Source: Candidatus Hydrogenedentota bacterium
GTDB lineage: Bacteria > Hydrogenedentota > Hydrogenedentia > Hydrogenedentales > SLHB01
Reading direction: 5' to 3'
DNA: 64,000 bases
Assembly: GCA_034408725.1 (NCBI GenBank)
Contig: JAWXCN010000032.1
Location: 13,517-77,516 of the forward strand
Below, in pieces: positions 54,243-62,059 of this stretch. The notes below the pieces were generated by a model that saw only the letters and a list, made by a program, of their open reading frames with translations, was not told where the DNA came from and searched no databases. Within the stretch, counting starts at the first letter, position 1. Every line of letters starts with the position of its first letter. Position numbers and translations under genes: made by a program.

Positions 54243-55310
54243 TTACCATGAGTCTGGAAATGTTACGTAATATCCCGAAATACGGCCACCTTCCGTACGA
54301 ATCTCGTAATCAATAATTAACCTTACTTTTCCGGCTACCTGTACACTGCAAGGGTAACTCCCATCCAATATGGCGCTGCCATCGGCCATGTATTGATAGC
54401 AATTTCCCTTCGAATCCAAATCCCAACTGACAAACGTGGGATCACTCGTTTTCACGGCACTCACCGACACCATCCGCTGATCGCTATAGACCAGCGTCGG
54501 CGTGTTGCCGTGCCAGCTCAATTGTGGTGGTGACGGAAAACGCTGGCTTTGAACATTGGTTTTTTGCGGTATTGACCACGTTTTGCCGCGGTCCTTGCTT
54601 TCGGTTACCCAGAAATAACCATCGGACTGCGGGATATTGTTCCGCGAGATTCCAATGATATGTTTTGACTCAAGTTCGAGGGCATCCCACTCGTCCCCGA
54701 CGAATCCGTCGGTATCGGGGATTGCGAATGATTCCCAGTTCCGACCGTTGTTGTACGAGAGCGCGGCGATCGCGCCGTTGCCGGGGGCCTTGTACAGTGG
54801 TAACAAGACGTCGCCGTTAGAAAGTACGACGCCGGCAGAGCGCGTGCGCGTATTCGGCACGCCGACGGACTGTGGCGCGGACCACGTTTTTCCGCCATCA
54901 CCGGATCGGGCGGTCATCGCCAGGGACACCTCGTCTCTGGTATACGAATTATAGGAGAGGAGCAATTCGCCGTTCGGCAGTTCGACAATGGCGACGTTAC
55001 GATCATCGACACCGGGCTCATCGACAATTACGCTGGCAGATGACCATGTGCGGCCCTTGTCCGAACTCGTTGCAAGCATGACGCGCCCTTCAGCGGAGAA
55101 CATGTGTTCGGTGCCTTCGCGCCACACGCAATACAACGTGCCGCTGGCTCCGGCGGTGATCCACGGCCAACCCGGGTACTTGCCTTCGTAGATGATGACG
55201 TCGGGTTTTGTGCGCTGGAACGCATCAGTCGATACCTGCGCGAAACTGCCCGCGCCGATGCCCGCCATTCCCGCCGCGGTCAATGCCAGAAAACGTCGTC
55301 GTGTGTGCAT
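54243..55310 (-). CDS. BNR-repeat exo-alpha-sialidase-like protein with TAT signal
   Basis: Lies within ORF 54243..55388, with the ATG at 55310 (MHTRRRFLALTAAGMAGIGAGSFA). There are three Asp-boxes: SSDKGRTWS, SGDGGKTWS and SKDRGKTWS. Confidence 0.82.
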   Translation of the reverse strand: MHTRRRFLALTAAGMAGIGAGSFAQVSTDAFQRTKPDVIIYEGKYPGWPWITAGASGTLYCVWREGTEHMFSAEGRVMLATSSDKGRTWSSASVIVDEPGVDDRNVAIVELPNGELLLSYNSYTRDEVSLAMTARSGDGGKTWSAPQSVGVPNTRTRSAGVVLSNGDVLLPLYKAPGNGAIAALSYNNGRNWESFAIPDTDGFVGDEWDALELESKHIIGISRNNIPQSDGYFWVTESKDRGKTWSIPQKTNVQSQRFPSPPQLSWHGNTPTLVYSDQRMVSVSAVKTSDPTFVSWDLDSKGNCYQYMADGSAILDGSYPCSVQVAGKVRLIIDYEIRTEGGRISGYYVTFPDSW

Positions 55311-55398
55311 TACGCCCTCTCCCGATTTCAGTGAGGGAACATTATACCCAATGGTACCGCAGGCATTTAGTAGCGCCGCAATTGCCAAGGGCGGCGGG

Positions 55399-55424
55399 TG
55401 TAGCGCTGAATTCCGATTCGGCGC
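55399..55424 (-). repeat. 26-nt repeat, inverted copy
   Basis: TGTAGCGCTGAATTCCGATTCGGCGC is the exact reverse complement of 55837-55862 and 56372-56397. Confidence 0.9.
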
Positions 55425-55661
55425 GTGCCGGAGAGAACGACCACATCAGGTTCGAGCGAGTGAACATGTTCAATAACCCGGACCGCAAACAAAGCACCCC
55501 AGTCGCATCCTCCGCGCCACCGACTCCGGAGCACGCCGCGTTTGGCAAACGAGGCGCTACCTGGGAATGCGCGCAGTCCCACGCTCCAAATTTGCGTGGA
55601 GTCTTATTCGTGCTGATGGGTCATTCCTTTATAGATTAGGCCGAGACGTTGCAGTGGGGTT

Positions 55662-55703
55662 GGAAATTAATTTAAGGGGTATTTATGGATTTGCGTAGAA
55701 TGG
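55662..55703 (+). repeat. 42-nt AT-rich conserved intergenic block, copy 2
   Basis: GGAAATTAATTTAAGGGGTATTTATGGATTTGCGTAGAATGG matches 4289-4330 at 36 of 42 positions. Confidence 0.7.
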
Positions 55704-55738
55704 ACTGACACGGACTGATATGGACAGACACGGACAAA
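55699..55738 (+). repeat. Period-10 array of NGGAC units x4
   Basis: ATGGACTGAC ACGGACTGAT ATGGACAGAC ACGGACAAAA, with GGAC at 55702, 55712, 55722 and 55732. Confidence 0.75.
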
Positions 55739-55836
55739 ATGAATTGGGTTCGGGATGTTCGGCACCACCATTCAACCGTCCGGCCGCGACTGGAACACAT
55801 AGGCGACGCGCATCGGGCTTGGTCGACCTTCCGACT

Positions 55837-55862
55837 GCGCCGAATCGGAATTCAGCGCTACA
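55837..55862 (+). repeat. 26-nt repeat, direct copy 1
   Basis: GCGCCGAATCGGAATTCAGCGCTACA. The 28-nt version TGCGCCGAATCGGAATTCAGCGCTACAT is identical to 56371-56398. Confidence 0.9.
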
Positions 55863-55919
55863 TGGTTGCTCTCAAACGATACTTTACCTATCATTGATCA
55901 ATTAGGAGGCTATCCGCCC

Positions 55920-56138
55920 ATGGACGTTGTCATACCGCTCGACAAAATGTCGGTCGCAGAAAAATTGCGCGCAATGGAAGAGTCCTGGGACGACCTTCAA
56001 CGCGGATCGGGCGAGGTACCCTCGCCTGCCTGGCATGAAGACATTCTCCGCGCTCGAGAAAACCGCGTCAACGAAGGTGTGTCCAATTATGCTGACTGGT
56101 CCGAAGCAAAAGATAGGATTCCTCGTCAGACCCAATGA
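55920..56138 (+). CDS. Putative addiction-module antitoxin component (TIGR02574-like)
   Basis: Lies within ORF 55866..56138. The ATG at 55920 is 10 nt after AGGAGG. MDVVIPLDKMSVAEKLRAMEESWDDLQR...PAWHEDILRARENRVNEG...WSEAKDRI fits the family pattern. Confidence 0.65.
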   Translation: MDVVIPLDKMSVAEKLRAMEESWDDLQRGSGEVPSPAWHEDILRARENRVNEGVSNYADWSEAKDRIPRQTQ

Positions 56139-56209
56139 GGGTTCAAATCCTTGAAGCTTCTGTTGGTTTGCGGGTGGCGAGTTCAACTTCTGCGATGGAG
56201 GGGTTGTGA
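56135..56209 (+). pseudogene. Possible truncated RelE/ParE-like toxin remnant
   Basis: The ATG overlaps the antitoxin stop (ATGA 56135-56138), the usual TA coupling. MRVQILEAS is a ParE/RelE-like start, but the frame stops after 24 codons. I could not convincingly recover the rest in other frames. Confidence 0.3.
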
Positions 56210-56371
56210 GGCCACAGGACTGCACCGCTCTCACGCGAGCGAGACACTACTTTGCAGCCCGTTATCTCCGGTATAGCGACTGCGCGACATGCGTTTACCG
56301 TAGGTCTACCTATGTTACGCTGATCTCCGATGGGGAATTTTTTGATCGAGCCGTGGGTATCGGTCATGCAT

Positions 56372-56397
56372 GCGCCGAATCGGAATTCAGCGCTACA
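56372..56397 (+). repeat. 26-nt repeat, direct copy 2
   Basis: GCGCCGAATCGGAATTCAGCGCTACA, identical to 55837-55862. Confidence 0.9.
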
Positions 56398-56529
56398 TCA
56401 GTGGGATTGGAGATTATTTGAAGCGGAATTTATGAGTTCGTGCAAAATTGATGAACATAAATGGAAGAGGAGTGCACCTAGCAGGGTGGAAACAGAAGTA
56501 ATAAAGTTTTCCAGAGAGCTTTTGCGTTT

Positions 56530-57591
56530 TTACATTTCTCGGTTGGCAAAACTTATCTCGAAAAATTTATCCAAGTCAAGCCGATAAACCCGTCTGCAGC
56601 CACTTGTGTATTGTTCGGGATGTGCGAACTCACGCGGTGTGGGATAGGCAATAGTAATGTCGTCCATAAATGCGCGAAAAATACCCACTGCAACAGCCTG
56701 CATTTTACTGCCGGTGGGCGCTACTATAATTCGCTCAAATTCGCCGTGCGCGTTGTATATATTTGAAAGGTTATCAATGGTCTCACCGTATTCCAATGTG
56801 CTGGCATAAAAATCCTCTCTCGACGCCAAAGAATTCGTGTTATTCAATTCTTGAATCGCCTTTAATCGCCATATATTTTCCTCCGCTGGAGGAATTCCAT
56901 GAATCAAAGTAATTGCTGATGGCTGAGTTTCATTTCTTAGTGCTGATAGTTGATCAACATTGAAAGAGGGGAAAAATACTAATCTCGTTGGTTGTCCTTG
57001 AAGTGCGACGGACGACAATTCCGGTATAATGGCAACTTCAATCACGCCCTTTGACAGAAATAATATATCATAGGGATTATACCCCCTGTCGGCAATTCTT
57101 CTGGCAACCTCTTTTTGATCAGGCGGGTACTTTTCTGCTTCGGTATAGATAACAGTGCAATTGCTAAAGCCCATCGAATGCTTACCGACAGCCGCTAAAA
57201 TCTGAACAATGAGCAATTTCGACATTGCAGATATATCAATGAATAAACGCCCTTTGCCGGACCTGATACTTTCAAGAAGTTCTTCGCCGAACCACGCTGG
57301 ATCTTCTCTATCGTAGACTCCTGACATATTATTTACGGCACGGTTATCCGCAAAGAGTTCTATCTCTGCAGATCTATTTTGAACCAGACTGGGAGAGTAA
57401 ATGATTTTAAACACCGTGATATCGTTTGGGCACTTCGTCGCGACCAAACTTGGTACATAGTGAGCTCGATCCTCAAATCCGGCGCAATAGACAAGCTCGT
57501 CGCCTGGCTCAAGAGCCAAGTCAGCAATAGAAGTGAGGCGGGGCTTGTCAACCTGGCAAAGCAACTGGTCGATTCTGAGGACAGTATGCAT
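56530..57591 (-). CDS. Island gene C: 353-aa protein of unknown function, tandem Rossmann-like alpha/beta segments
   Basis: The ATG (57591-57589) directly abuts the TAA stop of gene B (57594-57592). There are strand-then-polar signatures GRLFIDISAMSKLL (aa 114-127) and ERIIVAPTGSKMQAVAVG (aa 286-303). No PD-(D/E)xK, HNH, PLD, TIR or SIR2 motif was recognised. GC is low. Confidence 0.75.
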   Translation of the reverse strand: MHTVLRIDQLLCQVDKPRLTSIADLALEPGDELVYCAGFEDRAHYVPSLVATKCPNDITVFKIIYSPSLVQNRSAEIELFADNRAVNNMSGVYDREDPAWFGEELLESIRSGKGRLFIDISAMSKLLIVQILAAVGKHSMGFSNCTVIYTEAEKYPPDQKEVARRIADRGYNPYDILFLSKGVIEVAIIPELSSVALQGQPTRLVFFPSFNVDQLSALRNETQPSAITLIHGIPPAEENIWRLKAIQELNNTNSLASREDFYASTLEYGETIDNLSNIYNAHGEFERIIVAPTGSKMQAVAVGIFRAFMDDITIAYPTPREFAHPEQYTSGCRRVYRLDLDKFFEISFANREM

Positions 57592-60090
57592 TTATATATC
57601 CTCTTCTTTAGTATCAGTAAACTCCAATTGCACGTCATCGGTGCCCATCCGAACGGATGGCCCATACTCCGAAAAAGGTTTGCGAAGGCGATAGGCATCC
57701 TCAAATTTATTTGGATTGAGTAAAAGGCCTTCAATTTCGCTTGGTTCTAACTCAACCGAATCTCTCCGACTAAACGTGAGGCCAAAATGTGGAAGTAAGC
57801 ATCGACGCAAATACAAGCGGGGAACCACTTTGCCGCGTCGACTTTTTCCACGCGGATCTTCAATGAATAAAGAATATCGAAGCAACTCTCTATAAACGCT
57901 CAACGCCTCTTTTCCTAAATTTAAATCCTCATATGGTTCGATTCGAGATGCCAAATAGGGTGGCGATGAACTTTCATTCTTGCTGTCCCGAAACTTAAGA
58001 TAGGAAAAGGCGACAACTGCGAACGCGGTCACGACATGAACTAAATGCTCGCCGTTGCTAGTGCCGCGCAAACCCTGCAAAAAACTCCCAGCTTCAGAGC
58101 GAATTGCATCGGCTTGTATCTCCTTCCGAAGTTTCGGTACTGCTGGCGATGTTTTAAGGGCAGACGCTCCTCCGGCGTCCTCGATCATGCGGCCAACCAG
58201 TCCAATCAGATAGAAAACATCTCCGCTACACAATTCAGAAAGTGAATGTCGGCCCCAAACGTTAAGTTTTTTGTCGTTTCTGATGGCACGTGCTATATCG
58301 TTGTAGCTCCTTGAGTCTGACTCTCCTAGAAGCTCTAATAGAGTTTTAACAGGATATCCTTCGACGGCACCAAATCTTCTTGCAAACACATCTTCAATAA
58401 AAGCCAATTTTTCGTCTGGCTTAGCATGCAGAAAAACAAGACCCAAGTTTAATAGCTGAAACTCACGTCCTTCAACGTATGATTTCCCGTCGATATCGGA
58501 ACGCGCGTACGAAACGGGGCTTTCAGTAGAAAGTTTAAAAAAACAACATGATGTTCGCTGCATAAATAGTCTGTTAAGATTCTTTTGCAAATCGAGGGTG
58601 ATCTTGGGCATCGAGTAATCATCAACAAAGAAATAAAATGGGCGGTTATCAAGGCTCGGAAACTGCCTTAGAATCGCAGCGCACACAGTAGGCAAGATAT
58701 CTGGACCCCAAAGGCCTTCCATTGGGTGGTCATAGGTAAATCTATGTTTTAATCTAGCGCGTTTACGCTGCTTTGCCATAGCAAACTTTAGCGCTTCGAA
58801 AGTATTGCCACTTGGTTCAGTTATCGGATTTAGCTCAAGAAGTTTCAACAAATCGGAAGTCAGCTTTGATTCCAATTCCCGGAATTGGTCGGGAAAACTG
58901 ACACTGGTCCATTGTTCAATTGTTTCCAATACCTGTGAAATCAGAGTGGCCGATATGAAGTGCATGGGTAAATCTATCGCTTCGGTTCTCGAAGGTATTT
59001 CGTAACGTGGAAATGTTCCGTACAAGTCATCGCATCGATAGTAAATGCCAATATACGGAATGGTCGACAAATACTCGTCGCTTACCAATAATCGGTGCTG
59101 TAAGCTAAGACTCTTGAAGACAGTTGTCTTTCCACAGCCTCTAGGTCCAGTTAGTACCAAATTATTCCTATCTTCGATTTGGGTGACGCCTAGAAATTTG
59201 TTCGAATAAAGGGATCGCAATAGGCCATGGGAATCTCCTATTTGTTCACAACTCAAATAGTCGAACGGACTCGATAGGGAAACTTTCGTTTTTACCTGAG
59301 CCTCGCGGTGAAACGCCGTTGGGATATCTAGGAGTTTATGGTAAAGACCTTCGGGATTGCGGGCCAATTGATCGCGCGTGCGATCCCTTTCAGTCAAATG
59401 CCGAGCCAGAAAATGCGTATTTAGGACGTTATAGGTGTATCTTTCGAGTGGACTACAGTCTTGATAGTTAATATTTGCAAGGAGTTCCTGTAAGATGAGA
59501 GCCGTCTGATCATAATCGTCGCGGGCTTGGGACTCGCTCGTTGCTGATGTTACACCAAAGTCTGTTACGCGTATTCGATAATCCGGACCACCGAGTTGGC
59601 CAGTGCAATCTTCTACGAGAACATTCCCAGCGTGTATATCACCATGCCGAACGTGCATTTGTTCCATGTTGTGGAGCAACGCGAACATTGCCTTTAAAAA
59701 GTCCTCTATGAAGCCAACGCGGATCTGGTGCAGATGCTGTTTAATATACTCGCGTAGATCGATGCCTGGAATATATTCAAAGAAAAGAAGAACACAATCT
59801 ATATCGTTTGCTTCATCGAGCCAGGCCGTCATGGTTTGGAATCGTACCGCCACTGGCGTACTTAAGATGGCAACTTTTCGTATTTCGTCGAGCCATTGCG
59901 ATTCTTGAGCATTGACAAGGTTCACACGAGGAATTATTTTGCAAGCGACGGTATGTGAAGTGTTGGTGGCGAACGCTTCAAACATTAGTCCATTTAGTCC
60001 ACTTTTAATCAACCGTACAATTTTATAGTCGTCGCGACCCGGTATCGTGTGTTGTAGAAAAAATTCCGGTTTTGGAAGATTGCGTTTCAT
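57592..60090 (-). CDS. Island gene B: protein-kinase-like domain fused to P-loop NTPase with long C-terminal region
   Basis: 832 aa. Kinase-like core: GLNGLMFEA...HTVACKI (Lys51), HGDIHAGN (59623-59646) and DFG (59554-59562). Walker A is GPRGCGKT (59125-59148). Walker B-like is FYFFVDD (58618-58638). About 340 further residues carry no motif I recognise. The start overlaps the gene A stop (ATGA 60087-60090). Confidence 0.85.
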   Translation of the reverse strand: MKRNLPKPEFFLQHTIPGRDDYKIVRLIKSGLNGLMFEAFATNTSHTVACKIIPRVNLVNAQESQWLDEIRKVAILSTPVAVRFQTMTAWLDEANDIDCVLLFFEYIPGIDLREYIKQHLHQIRVGFIEDFLKAMFALLHNMEQMHVRHGDIHAGNVLVEDCTGQLGGPDYRIRVTDFGVTSATSESQARDDYDQTALILQELLANINYQDCSPLERYTYNVLNTHFLARHLTERDRTRDQLARNPEGLYHKLLDIPTAFHREAQVKTKVSLSSPFDYLSCEQIGDSHGLLRSLYSNKFLGVTQIEDRNNLVLTGPRGCGKTTVFKSLSLQHRLLVSDEYLSTIPYIGIYYRCDDLYGTFPRYEIPSRTEAIDLPMHFISATLISQVLETIEQWTSVSFPDQFRELESKLTSDLLKLLELNPITEPSGNTFEALKFAMAKQRKRARLKHRFTYDHPMEGLWGPDILPTVCAAILRQFPSLDNRPFYFFVDDYSMPKITLDLQKNLNRLFMQRTSCCFFKLSTESPVSYARSDIDGKSYVEGREFQLLNLGLVFLHAKPDEKLAFIEDVFARRFGAVEGYPVKTLLELLGESDSRSYNDIARAIRNDKKLNVWGRHSLSELCSGDVFYLIGLVGRMIEDAGGASALKTSPAVPKLRKEIQADAIRSEAGSFLQGLRGTSNGEHLVHVVTAFAVVAFSYLKFRDSKNESSSPPYLASRIEPYEDLNLGKEALSVYRELLRYSLFIEDPRGKSRRGKVVPRLYLRRCLLPHFGLTFSRRDSVELEPSEIEGLLLNPNKFEDAYRLRKPFSEYGPSVRMGTDDVQLEFTDTKEEDI

Positions 60091-61370
60091 TTTTTCTTAA
60101 GAACCAATATTCGTTCTTGGCGCGTACCTGCGCAGTCTTTTCTGGAGCGGCGTATGTCGGGGATGTTGTCAAGGAACGAATGCTGCAAAGTTAACGAAGG
60201 CGCGAATTGTGCGAAAATGGCAAGCGTTATGTCGCTTGGATGTAATGTACCTCTTCGAGTGACGGTTTCCCCAACAATAAGAACACAGTGTCCATTGGAA
60301 ACCAAACCTCTTTCTGCACACGCAGCTAACTTTTGAATCGCCTTGCGAAAATCGTCTTCGTTCCGGGTCATACTATTATCTGTAACGGTCTCGGCATCTT
60401 GTGTCAAGAACCATAGGCGCAGGCGATTATCTCGGACATAATCCAGCGCATTCATATAAGGCGGACTACTCACGATGCAGTCAAAACTCTGCGGGAAGGC
60501 CAAGGCGCGTATCTCGCTGCGGCGAATCGTCCATTTTGGTATTTGTCGTGGAAGTTTCATTCGTTTATAAGCGCGAGTGATCTTTGCATGCATCCGCGGC
60601 ACGATTTCGCGATACTCGTACAAGTCGGGATGTTGTTCGCGGGGAAATCTTACGTTGCGAAGGTATGGTACGAGATGACTGCTCGGGTATGATAAAAAAC
60701 CTGGCCTTTGGTGGTGCAGGATGCCGAGCAAGCAAGCTAGTGTGAAATGGTCTCGCTTTTTCCTGCAAACTGTCGCAAGCCGAATCGCACTCTTAAGGGT
60801 ACGCGGGTGAAAGAAACGCCGCACCCAGATGGGAACTTGTCGTAAATCTGGTTCCGGAAGGAGTAATGATTCGCTATAAGCACAATCGAAATTTAGAATC
60901 GCCGATTGAAGATTTATAGGAGCTGCTAGCTTGGCGCAGGTAAGTACGGTCGCATATTGGCTTACGTCCGATGCGAATATACGCCGTCCAAGTCGTATAG
61001 CTTCAAGTGGTATGGTTCCCGCGCCGCAAAACGGATCGACGATGAGATTTCCATTTTTCGTATACCTGGAAATTAGGTCCGAAGCAATGGAACTTTTGAG
61101 TTTTCCTATGTATGGGGATAGTTGATGCAAGGTGCATTCTGAATTTGCACATGAGTCGCTCCAATGGCGCGGAGCCAATTTAGTCTCTGATTGACGGGGT
61201 TCAGATTGTGTTTTTAACGGCTTTTTTTTCTCGTATATCTGCGCAGTGCCAATTGTTGCCGTTGCTTGGTTGTATTTCATACGCATGCTTTTCATTATAA
61301 CCCCCAATAAGTTAACACATGAGGTAAGCCCTTCGCGAGGTCGGCCGTTAAAATGAATAACCTTGTGCAA
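60087..61370 (-). CDS. Island gene A: SAM-dependent DNA amino-methyltransferase (SPPY catalytic motif, motif I upstream of motif IV)
   Basis: Motif X/I is LHQLSPYIGKLKSSIASDLISRYTKNGNLIVDPFCGAGTIPLEAIRLGRRIFASD (VDPFCGAGT at 61014-61040). Motif IV is FDCIVSSPPY (SPPY at 60456-60467). An alternative start is at 61295 (MKSMRMKY), 7 nt after GGGGG. Confidence 0.82.
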   Translation of the reverse strand: MHKVIHFNGRPREGLTSCVNLLGVIMKSMRMKYNQATATIGTAQIYEKKKPLKTQSEPRQSETKLAPRHWSDSCANSECTLHQLSPYIGKLKSSIASDLISRYTKNGNLIVDPFCGAGTIPLEAIRLGRRIFASDVSQYATVLTCAKLAAPINLQSAILNFDCAYSESLLLPEPDLRQVPIWVRRFFHPRTLKSAIRLATVCRKKRDHFTLACLLGILHHQRPGFLSYPSSHLVPYLRNVRFPREQHPDLYEYREIVPRMHAKITRAYKRMKLPRQIPKWTIRRSEIRALAFPQSFDCIVSSPPYMNALDYVRDNRLRLWFLTQDAETVTDNSMTRNEDDFRKAIQKLAACAERGLVSNGHCVLIVGETVTRRGTLHPSDITLAIFAQFAPSLTLQHSFLDNIPDIRRSRKDCAGTRQERILVLKKK

Positions 61371-62059
61371 CGCCCCGGGCTATTCTGTAGAGGCATTCAA
61401 CAATGAACACTACAGACACCCGACCACTTGACGCCCGAGCCATCGCCGATCCCTTGTCCCTCCCGACGCATCTCCGGGAGCAGTTCGAGCGCCTGCGCGC
61501 CGATCGTGGGCCCAATGCGGACAGCGGGACGCCGTCTGTCCGTTGCACGCCCCTCGGCACACCCTGCTCCCGGTTGTGGGATGAGGTTCGGCGCGTGTGC
61601 GATCCTCCATTATGGCCATCCGCACCAATCGACTGAAACGGCACAACCAGAATCACACGCCGACACTTGGCCACCCCCTTGCACCCCAGCACCCAGGCTC
61701 CCTGTCCATTGCTTCAACCTCCGAGTGCTAACCTCAATTCAATCTTCGACTTGCCCGGAATACCGCACGACGCTCATGCTCGTGGCGGGACGCTACACCC
61801 CCCCTTGTATCGTCAAAAAAAGTTTTGTACACCCCCTCAAACCCTCTTGACCTCCGCAATCCGTCGCGCTTCACGCTGCCGTGTACTGCAACAGACTGGG
61901 CGAATGAGTAAAGGCGCATAGCCAATCACGAGCAACGGCTGGTCGCCATTTACATGATTCGCTATTTTCCAGCATAACCCTTGATCGATTACGATTACGC
62001 CCGCGCGCGGGGGTATAACGCGCACACGAAGCGGAAGGTTAGCCAGGGGAAAAGCAAAA

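Follow-up and report, generated by a model that had tools for sequence, protein, structure and literature searches.

The locus lies in a 64,000-nucleotide stretch of a Candidatus Hydrogenedentota bacterium contig (JAWXCN010000032.1; hereafter the window) and comprises three genes read from the minus strand. Gene A (60087..61370, minus strand) encodes an amino-methyltransferase, recognized by motif I (DPFCGAGT), motif IV (SPPY) and matches to N6_N4_Mtase, UPF0020 and MTase_II. Gene B (57592..60090, minus strand) begins with ATG and encodes 832 aa, as defined by ORF translation, Pfam, PADLOC and an AlphaFold2 (AF2) model; the opposite, plus strand of this interval gives a translation riddled with stops. 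Gene C (56530..57591, minus strand) encodes a tandem CARF-like protein of two Rossmann-like halves. The stop codon of gene A overlaps the start codon of gene B (ATGA), the TAA of gene B directly adjoins the ATG of gene C (TAAATG), and the three genes are translationally coupled. A promoter and terminator scan gave signals no better than those in shuffled sequence. The true start of gene A probably lies downstream of the TTG at 61370, because homologues cover the protein only from aa ~45-60 onwards.

Gene B is intact and fuses a pared-down protein kinase (aa ~15-270) to an ORC/Cdc6-like AAA+ ATPase (aa ~300-650) and a predicted DNA-binding, basic winged helix (aa ~706-800). An earlier note, made from the sequence alone, had read it as a single polypeptide joining a kinase-like domain to a P-loop NTPase; the Pkinase and ORC-CDC6-like profile matches described below and the intact catalytic residues bear this out, and translation places every motif at the residue that the note had given (GLNG 31, VACK 48, WLDEIRK 66, HGDIHAGN 149, DFG 177, GPRGCGKT 315, FYFFVDD 485). 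The structure prediction that it had proposed was made with AF2 and resolved the domains well (pLDDT 89.8, pTM 0.80). Across 64 full-length homologues the kinase residues G31, H149, D151, N156, D177, F178 and D192 and the ATPase residues G315, R317, G320, K321, D490 and D491 are invariant, while K51 and E69 are kept in all but one (63/64).

The ePK-like kinase domain (59281..60048, minus strand) is delimited by the Pkinase profile, Foldseek and residue conservation. Pfam PF00069 matches aa 22-196 with 49.4 bits against a cut-off of 31.7 (E 5.5e-13), although only positions 1-160 of the 263 in the profile are covered. When the complete gene B model was compared with the PDB by Foldseek, the best 50 matches were all protein kinases, headed by WNK, PknB, GAK and Stk1 (E 3e-9 to 1e-7), with ~260-290 columns covered. 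The catalytic set is complete, comprising the Gly loop, the β3 Lys, the αC Glu, the HxD...N loop (HGDIHAGN, 59623-59646, minus strand), DFG (59554-59562, minus strand) and the αF Asp; the coordinates of both motifs were checked. What the domain does not have, in either its sequence or its AF2 model, is an activation segment with APE and a P+1 loop: merely 12 residues separate DFG179 from D192 of αF, and the APE motif, of which the earlier note had seen no clear instance, occurs nowhere in the protein. The N-terminal part of gene B is a minimal Hanks-type kinase, with its catalytic apparatus intact and apparently active. Because the peptide-binding activation segment is missing, its substrate might be non-protein. 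The earlier note had also considered that the N-terminus could prove to be a small-molecule kinase; the profiles instead assign it to the protein-kinase type, with APH (13.9 bits, cut-off 23.2) and Kdo (14.1 bits, cut-off 21.3) far behind Pkinase. ABC1 reached a borderline 23.0 bits against its cut-off of 22.9, and its E-value of 5e-5 compares poorly with the 5.5e-13 of Pkinase. A conserved linker follows the kinase (aa 271-305, PFDYLSCEQIG...LYS; 59176..59280, minus strand; entropy in the alignment 1.34 bits).

The AAA+ core (aa 306-550; 58441..59175, minus strand) is defined by Pfam PF24389, AF2 strand order, conservation and hhalign. The PF24389 (ORC-CDC6-like) match reaches 134.2 bits against a cut-off of 27 (E 8.5e-39, aa 302-592), and nearly all of the at least 120 gene B homologues listed carry this annotation. 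Walker A (GPRGCGKT; 59125-59148, minus strand), with the invariant Arg317 inside the P-loop, and the conserved Walker B (FYFFVDD; 58618-58638, minus strand) are both intact, which supports the prediction of an active NTPase; T522/E523 and R542 are candidates for sensor-1 and the Arg finger, respectively. The unusually wide spacing between the two motifs had led the earlier note to suspect an inserted domain, and the AF2 model contains one. The 169 aa between the Walker A Lys and the Walker B Asp arise because a four-helix insert (aa 354-476; 58663..59031, minus strand; helices 374-398, 400-417, 431-450 and 465-476), delimited by AF2, entropy and spacing, sits between β2 (347-352) and β3 (485-490). 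Since the distance stays at 169-174 aa in all 64 homologues, the wide spacing is a family trait. The insert is conserved in presence and evolving fast: with a column entropy of 2.30 bits, compared with 1.3-1.4 for the core, it varies more than any other structured part of gene B. Similarity to known initiators is limited. A PDB sequence-profile search with aa 285-832 gave weak P-loop matches only, the best being Rad17 (E 9.2e-5); hhalign against 13 archaeal Orc1/Cdc6 proteins aligned 46 columns only (β1-P-loop-α1-β2, probability 85%); and TIGR02928, the NCBIfam profile of bona fide Orc1/Cdc6 initiators, does not match at E <= 0.1.

The C-terminal region, which the earlier note had taken for a long, sensor-like extension, resolves differently in the AF2 model: the final 280 aa are an AAA+ lid, a helical region and a winged helix that ends at aa 800, ahead of a disordered tail. 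The lid, or helical bundle (aa 551-650; 58141..58440, minus strand), rests on AF2 and on the Rad17 profile, a weak second stretch of which spans a conserved CSGD (aa 621-624) resembling box VIII of clamp loaders. The helical region and winged helix (aa 651-800; 57691..58140, minus strand; AF2, entropy and conservation) have an entropy of 0.84-0.91 bits and include a basic β-hairpin wing (aa 741-780; R747, K749, R752, R758, R762, R763) that is the most conserved, lowest-entropy stretch of gene B. Such a winged helix presumably binds DNA.

This architecture bears on whether gene B is a STAND/Avs-like sensor, in which the NTPase and C-terminal region would recognize a phage protein, oligomerize and activate the kinase, the methyltransferase being incidental. 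The layout of an N-terminal enzyme before a central NTPase, on which the earlier note had drawn its parallel, does stand; the insert is helical and variable; and within AAA+ the STAND NTPases are placed in the same ORC-Cdc6 subclade (10.64898/2026.10.19.760177). The remainder of the parallel does not hold. The AF2 model of gene B shows lid and wHTH at the C-terminus, and neither repeats of the TPR, WD40 or LRR-like kinds nor another dedicated sensor domain. No STAND profile rises above its cut-off, and nSTAND3 (15.6 bits, cut-off 27.2, E 0.013), AAA_16 (19.9 bits, cut-off 32.6) and ATPase_2 match around the P-loop only; the PADLOC matches listed for gene B include no Avs model. Moreover, no testable locus lacks the methyltransferase, which co-evolves with gene B, and this obligate partnership indicates discrimination based on DNA modification rather than recognition of a phage protein. 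We regard a STAND/Avs-like sensor as very improbable.

Among related genomes the cassette is a coherent unit. The order of methyltransferase, kinase-ATPase and tandem CARF on one strand holds in essentially all of 78 related loci, drawn from more than 20 bacterial lineages of many phyla as well as archaea. As the earlier note had anticipated, genes A and C accompany gene B homologues wherever the contig allows (71/78 and 75/78, respectively), the exceptions being contig ends and one decayed copy; the 78 loci share no fourth conserved gene and no conserved nuclease. Relatives of gene B form 337 clusters at 50% identity with E <= 1e-30, and 1120 with E <= 1e-10; none was found in phage records, and one only in plasmid records. 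Pairwise-identity matrices correlate most strongly between kinase-ATPase and CARF (r = 0.94), followed by methyltransferase and CARF (0.80) and methyltransferase and kinase-ATPase (0.78), so that the three proteins, to judge from these sequence comparisons, co-evolve. Their modules are split or fused according to lineage: a Bradyrhizobium plasmid carries methyltransferase, 246-aa kinase, 652-aa ATPase and CARF as separate genes, and triple kinase-ATPase-CARF fusions of 1219-1244 aa, together with an ATPase-CARF fusion, were also recovered. This interchange argues that kinase, ATPase and CARF act as one complex. The flanks of related loci carry type I and type III R-M, BrxH, SngC, MADS, DUF1156, DUF499 and Mrr genes, a defence-like context in line with the earlier note. 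A linkage to thyX was also seen.

Within the window, by comparison, no defence island surrounds the cassette, which is flanked by kdsB, a gene for a BNR-like protein and toxin-antitoxin (TA) remnants. It sits on an insertion of ~6.8 kb (55236..62026) defined by tblastx synteny and GC content. In two congeneric genomes tblastx finds the BNR-like gene and kdsB ~220-230 bp apart with the site empty; GC falls to 45-46% over genes B and C (56-60 kb bins) and 50% over gene A, compared with ~57% in the flanks; and no cassette orthologue occurs in 30 relatives. On the strength of this low-GC island, the empty congener site and the absence from relatives, the cassette is a horizontally mobile unit.

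The partner proteins present features of their own. Gene C is modelled confidently (pLDDT 91.1), matches the PADLOC CARF6 models (E 5.8e-21), including 'CARF6--CARF_CARF_CARF', and resembles Csa3, Csm6, Cam1, Can2 and Cad1 in Foldseek (probability 0.9-1.0). Its halves do not align significantly with each other by hhalign (probability 0.5%), so that the case for a tandem duplication comes from the fold and the parallel β4 motifs (DISxMSK / PTGSK) and not from sequence. It has no effector domain; no nuclease or other classical effector occurs in the cassette, no signal synthase is linked to it, and neither SMODS nor a Csm1 or Cmr2 cyclase was found in its own genome. In gene A, aa 221-240, where a target-recognition domain would sit, are strongly conserved (entropy 0.42 bits), whereas typical R-M and BREX methylases have a variable specificity region.

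Some of these features would suit a selfish epigenetic addiction or stress-signalling module, in which loss of methylation, or RNA damage sensed by the CARF protein as in RtcR, activates the kinase, and in which the methyltransferase possibly acts on RNA. Autonomous horizontal spread of the cassette fits, as does a genome without a cyclase; gene A has a conserved presumptive recognition region and, among Pfam families, matches UPF0020, a family of RNA m2G methylases, marginally best; and CARF domains outside CRISPR loci can, according to PMC4012209, sense RNA ends. Nevertheless, MTase_II, a DNA methyltransferase model in PADLOC, scores far better on gene A (E 6e-20), the wHTH and ORC-like ATPase of gene B indicate DNA, and R-M-type defence genes are enriched beside the cassette in other genomes. 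An addiction phenotype and defence are, moreover, not mutually exclusive. As an explanation of the cassette in its own right we consider such a module improbable.

Taken together, our findings tip slightly towards gene B as the enzyme at the centre of signalling in an autonomous, horizontally mobile three-gene module, likely directed against phages or other mobile genetic elements, that relies on modification-based self-marking and employs no nuclease. The case for defence is contextual and consists of the mobility of the cassette, its patchy distribution and the defence genes beside related loci. In such a module the methyltransferase would mark host DNA, and the ATPase-wHTH part of gene B, through its insert and wing, would engage DNA and act on unmarked DNA as an ATP-dependent switch or oligomerizer. 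The CARF protein would supply a second input, a small nucleotide or RNA end not made by a cassette-encoded cyclase, or could alternatively serve as a regulatory subunit. Once activated, the kinase might be released or clustered and would phosphorylate host or phage proteins, such that replication is stopped or the infection aborted. It is tempting to speculate further that the triad is a full immune system, with methylation as the self-mark, two sensors that act on a single enzyme, namely an ORC-like ATPase/wHTH that reads DNA and a cyclase-independent tandem CARF that reads a nucleotide derived from infection or metabolism, and protein phosphorylation by the minimal kinase, which has no activation loop, as the output; this more specific proposal is tentative, and we would not call it probable. 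If true, such a two-sensor triad would represent restriction without any nuclease, an immune logic so far undemonstrated.

The cassette is carried by hundreds of lineages of bacteria and archaea and unites themes that are usually studied separately, namely self-marking by modification, signalling by a kinase and CARF-based nucleotide sensing with no cyclase linked to it. Its mechanism would reveal what CARF domains sense outside CRISPR or CBASS contexts, and whether an ORC/Cdc6-like ATPase can sense DNA in a methylation-sensitive manner and thereby drive a kinase. With only three genes, the cassette is compact enough for ready testing in a heterologous host.

Of the known systems, type 2 BREX/Pgl invites comparison as a methyltransferase-linked system whose core lacks a dedicated classical restriction nuclease. 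It suggests an exclusion mechanism in which the ATPase-wHTH itself blocks replication of unmethylated DNA, and the kinase, rather than being the effector, is only regulatory, autophosphorylating or governing the methyltransferase or the CARF protein. The presence of a methyltransferase and absence of a nuclease, as in BREX, agree with this, as do the exceptional conservation of the putative DNA-binding wing and the position of two related loci next to MADS genes; PglW, too, is a single polypeptide in which a Ser/Thr kinase is combined with wHTH modules and a P-loop domain of ORC-Cdc6/STAND-like type (PMC12839542). However, PglW contains a NERD nuclease and a pseudokinase, and its P-loop domain is inactive, whereas gene B has a single kinase and an intact ATPase. 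Profiles for PglW gave no significant match to gene B, PglZ was likewise unmatched, and BrxC/PglY, DUF2791 and DUF499 found no match at E <= 0.1 in Pfam or PADLOC; nor did the KAP NTPase profile at that threshold, and the BREX-related PADLOC matches amount to BrxL at the P-loop only (E 1.8e-4). The proposal in the earlier note that gene B fuses the roles of PglW and PglY consequently stands as an analogy only. The cassette has no PglZ, BrxC, helicase or phosphatase partner, and BREX has no CARF partner. In gene B, furthermore, the kinase catalytic residues are conserved as strictly as those of the ATPase, and the kinase is retained even where it is encoded separately. We consequently rate BREX/Pgl-like exclusion as unlikely, if worth keeping in mind.

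The methylation-associated defence system MADS also brings a methyltransferase together with a protein kinase (mad6) and an ATPase (mad8). No defence-kinase model fits the gene B kinase domain better than that of mad6 (E 2.7e-15), and mad8 matches at the P-loop only (E 0.0028). Membership of MADS was rejected: with NCBIfam MAD6, gene B reaches 21 bits where the cut-off is 460, on the kinase domain only, and the other mad genes are absent from the three-gene cassette, MADS having eight genes and no CARF. Defence kinases of the PD-T4-6 and Stk2 type have the Hanks-type domain in common with gene B (PD-T4-6 models, E 4e-12 to 1e-6), with phosphorylation as the proposed output. They are, however, single-gene systems that have no ATPase, wHTH, methyltransferase or CARF partner, while gene B lacks the activation segment.

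The closest precedent is computational. In the passages concerned with kinase, AAA+ and methylase domains, Makarova et al. 2014 describe a 'small family' of fused Zn-ribbon, S/T/Y-kinase, AAA+, CARF and wHTH domains (PMC4012209). As described there, it has in common with genes B and C the kinase, the CARF domain and an AAA+ with a P-loop Arg, but includes a Zn ribbon and a fused CARF; here the CARF is a separate gene, the Zn ribbon is absent and, unlike in that fusion, the wHTH lies inside gene B, ahead of the CARF module. Those same passages mention neither a methyltransferase partner nor a three-gene cassette. A single PADLOC profile, PDLC01925 ('CARF6--CARF_STK_AAA'; 1187 positions), spans both genes, its N-terminal part corresponding to gene B and its C-terminal part to gene C, with aa 12-649 of gene B matching positions 34-672 (E 1.1e-24) and gene C positions 877-1179 (E 9.1e-7). 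The kinase-ATPase-CARF family is thus so far catalogued by computation only (Makarova 2014, PADLOC), and no experimental study of the cassette was found in the literature searched.

Lastly, the ATPase half recalls Orc1/Cdc6 and Rad17/RFC in its succession of AAA+ core, lid and C-terminal winged helix. Its helical insertion after β2 occupies the place of the initiator-specific motif, and hhalign pairs the 'v.vNC' of Orc1/Cdc6 β2 with the '...YY.C' of gene B. The insert of ~120 aa nevertheless far exceeds the short motif of the initiators, and compared with Orc1/Cdc6 and clamp loaders the N-terminal kinase is unique to the gene B family.

Gene B, the kinase-ATPase gene of the cassette, occupies 57592-60090 on the minus strand and encodes 832 aa from an ATG start; read on the plus strand, the same interval contains many stops. 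The earlier note had described its product as a kinase-like domain fused to a P-loop NTPase with a wide Walker A-B spacing, an observation that is confirmed here. GLNG (31), VACK (48), WLDEIRK (66), HGDIHAGN (149), DFG (177), GPRGCGKT (315) and FYFFVDD (485) all lie at the positions claimed, the coordinates were verified, and the APE motif is indeed lacking. The Pfam Pkinase profile matches aa 22-196 with 49.4 bits against a cut-off of 31.7 (E 5.5e-13), bearing out the kinase-like N-terminus; a small-molecule kinase identity was rejected, APH, Kdo and ABC1 scoring far below Pkinase. An AlphaFold2 model from an alignment of 52 sequences is confident (pLDDT 89.8, pTM 0.80), and in a Foldseek search of the PDB its residues ~15-270 align over 260-290 columns with the full Hanks-type kinases WNK, PknB, GAK and Stk1 (E 3e-9 to 1e-7). 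In the model the αF aspartate D192 follows DFG (177-179) after a gap of just 12 residues, which leaves the kinase with no activation segment, P+1 loop or APE. Rio/Bud32-type minimal kinases likewise lack these elements, and Bud32 matches gene B weakly in a profile search. The active site itself is intact: G31 of the Gly-loop, H149, D151, N156, D177, F178 and D192 are invariant in all 64 homologues; K51 and E69 each occur in 63. Judged from these residues, the kinase looks active, with an unusual substrate-binding mode.

The ATPase is recognized by the Pfam model PF24389 (ORC-CDC6-like) over aa 302-592 (134.2 bits against a cut-off of 27, E 8.5e-39), one of the affinities the earlier note had raised. 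Likeness to true archaeal Orc1/Cdc6 is remote: the alignment spans 46 columns, at the P-loop and β2 (probability 85%). The AAA+ core comprises β1 (311-314), β2 (347-352), β3 with Walker B (485-491), β4 (516-521) and β5 (544-548), with an invariant Arg317 within the P-loop of Walker A. The two Walker motifs lie 169 aa apart, and 169-174 aa apart in 64/64 homologues, because four helices (374-398, 400-417, 431-450 and 465-476) are inserted between β2 and β3; the suspected inserted element is thus real. It occupies the same place as the helical insertion that follows strand 2 in ORC/Cdc6-clade ATPases (PMC12839542). By column entropy across aligned homologues, in which low values denote conservation, no structured part of gene B varies more than the insert (2.30 bits versus 1.3-1.4 for the core), and no stretch is better conserved than aa 741-780, the winged helix's basic hairpin (0.84-0.91 bits). 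A lid at aa 551-650, with a CSGD motif resembling clamp-loader box VIII, is followed by a helical region and this winged helix; the best PDB sequence match to aa 285-832 is Rad17 (E 9.2e-5). This domain anatomy bears on the proposal that gene B is a STAND/Avs-type protein sensor. An enzymatic domain does precede a central NTPase, but profile searches with STAND, BrxC/PglY, DUF499, DUF2791 and KAP models returned no match beyond the P-loop; we regard such protein sensing as very improbable.

Gene A (60087-61370) encodes an amino-methyltransferase with an SPPY motif, as identified by profile searches. The TTG at 61370 probably lies upstream of the true start, since homologues align only from aa ~45-60. 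The part of the protein that separates motif I from SPPY, in which a target-recognition domain would be expected, includes one of the best conserved stretches of the methyltransferase (QRPGFLSYPSSHLVPYLRNV, 0.42 bits); the observation concerns aa 221-240 and 301-320. Such conservation of the expected recognition region points to a single, unvarying target throughout the family. Gene C (56530-57591) matches PADLOC 'CARF6' models (E 5.8e-21). Its model (pLDDT 91.1) has two Rossmann-like halves that match the CARF domains of Csa3, Csm6, Cam1, Can2 and Cad1 in a structure search (probability 0.9-1.0), with no detectable sequence similarity between one half and the other (hhalign probability 0.5%), and no effector domain. 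GFEDR after the first strand is invariant, and both halves keep a polar motif directly after the fourth strand (D119-I-S-x-M-S-K/R and P292-T-G-S-K296). SMODS, Csm1 and Cmr2 are absent from the host assembly (92% complete), which makes it unlikely that the CARF protein relies on a canonical cyclic-oligonucleotide synthase.

The three genes abut at ATGA and TAAATG junctions within an insertion of ~6.8 kb (55236-62026), which also holds TA-like remnants and a gene-less gap of ~690 bp. That this is an insertion follows from two congeners, in which only ~220-230 bp separate the BNR-like gene from kdsB, versus ~6.8 kb here. No integrase is visible. In 2-kb bins, GC content is ~57% in the flanks, falling to 50% over gene A and to 45-46% between 56 and 60 kb, where genes B and C lie. 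Gene B has no orthologue in 30 of 30 related genomes and no homologue in phage genomes. A 99% identical near-copy of 822 aa (P0004) lies on a 4.8-kb contig in the protein collection; the next best homologue, from a Hydrogenedentales MAG (L002), is 57% identical, and no close donor lineage has been sampled.

A scan of species-representative genomes yielded 78 cassette loci from many bacterial phyla and, among archaea, from Bathyarchaeia, Halobacteria, Methanoperedens and Thermoplasmatota. Methyltransferase, kinase-ATPase and CARF genes form an obligate triad, sharing one order and a single strand in every locus whose contig reaches far enough, with one decayed haloarchaeal copy as the sole exception; clustering of all flanking ORFs revealed no fourth conserved gene. 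The proteins co-evolve, their pairwise identity matrices correlating at 0.94 (kinase-ATPase with CARF), 0.78 (methyltransferase with kinase-ATPase) and 0.80 (methyltransferase with CARF). When the ATPase-wHTH profile was used in a full HMMER scan, 337 representative clusters passed E <= 1e-30 and 1120 passed E <= 1e-10. The modules are shuffled among lineages in Rosetta-stone fashion: kinase, ATPase and CARF are fused in proteins of 1219-1244 aa, ATPase and CARF in one protein of 922 aa, and on a Bradyrhizobium plasmid the kinase (246 aa) and the ATPase (652 aa) are encoded separately, with the methyltransferase and CARF genes on either side. The kinase-ATPase gene is two ORFs in several genomes (L056, L060, L066, L031, L040, L043, L046, L070, L074 and L077); in the first three the pieces lie 0.8-5 kb apart with methyltransferase and CARF genes retained, which suggests insertions in, or decay of, the central gene.

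Elsewhere the cassette is flanked by type I and type III R-M genes, BrxH helicases, SngC, MADS genes, DUF1156 and DUF499 proteins, PD-(D/E)xK ATPases and one Mrr nuclease. Across loci that include L025, L030, L044, L046, L028, L041, L050, L054 and L032, its recurrent neighbours are type III R-M genes, DUF1156 and DUF499 'BREX-related' genes, AAA-ATPase_like/PDDEXK_9 proteins and, in two loci, the MADS genes mad2 and mad5. Separately, five unrelated loci have thyX, for flavin-dependent thymidylate synthase, immediately beside the cassette: in L009, L010 and L045 it is upstream of the methyltransferase gene, and in L037 and L083 (8905-9828 of the latter locus, on Bradyrhizobium plasmid NZ_CP088025) it is downstream of the CARF gene. 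The arrangement hints that the cassette is connected with pyrimidine or nucleotide metabolism.

Taken together, the cassette is probably a defence or anti-MGE module. How it might work is a narrower judgement, on which we lean only slightly towards one picture: the methyltransferase would mark self DNA; the ATPase, through its insert and wing, would bind DNA and, where that DNA is unmarked, serve as an ATP-driven switch or oligomeriser; the CARF protein would either add a second input of nucleotide type or be a regulatory subunit; and the kinase would be the output. The conserved methyltransferase region at the expected recognition-domain site weighs against this reading, as does a kinase without a peptide-binding segment. 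A BREX-like direct block, in which the kinase is merely regulatory, we consider unlikely. A role outside immunity, in addiction or stress signalling and possibly directed at RNA, seems quite improbable.

Comparison with known systems places the cassette more closely. Makarova et al. 2014 described a 'small family' of large proteins combining Zn ribbon, S/T/Y kinase, AAA+, CARF and wHTH, the AAA+ ATPase being distinctive for an arginine in the P-loop (PMC4012209). Genes B and C match its PADLOC-DB counterpart, 'CARF6--CARF_STK_AAA', as a split version, and the cassette is therefore a new member of a family catalogued by computation. Likeness to MADS is limited to generic kinase and P-loop similarity. 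The resemblance to PglW and PglY drawn by the earlier note holds as architecture and fails as kinship: PglW of type 2 BREX, with a NERD nuclease, pseudokinase, kinase, three wHTH modules and an inactive ORC-Cdc6/STAND-like domain (PMC12839542), is a parallel to gene B and no relative. For 'HINPO' systems, a recent preprint (10.64898/2026.10.19.760177) proposes that ORC-CDC6/STAND-clade ATPases sense DNA beside a second nucleotide sensor, which is also the logic that we infer for this cassette.
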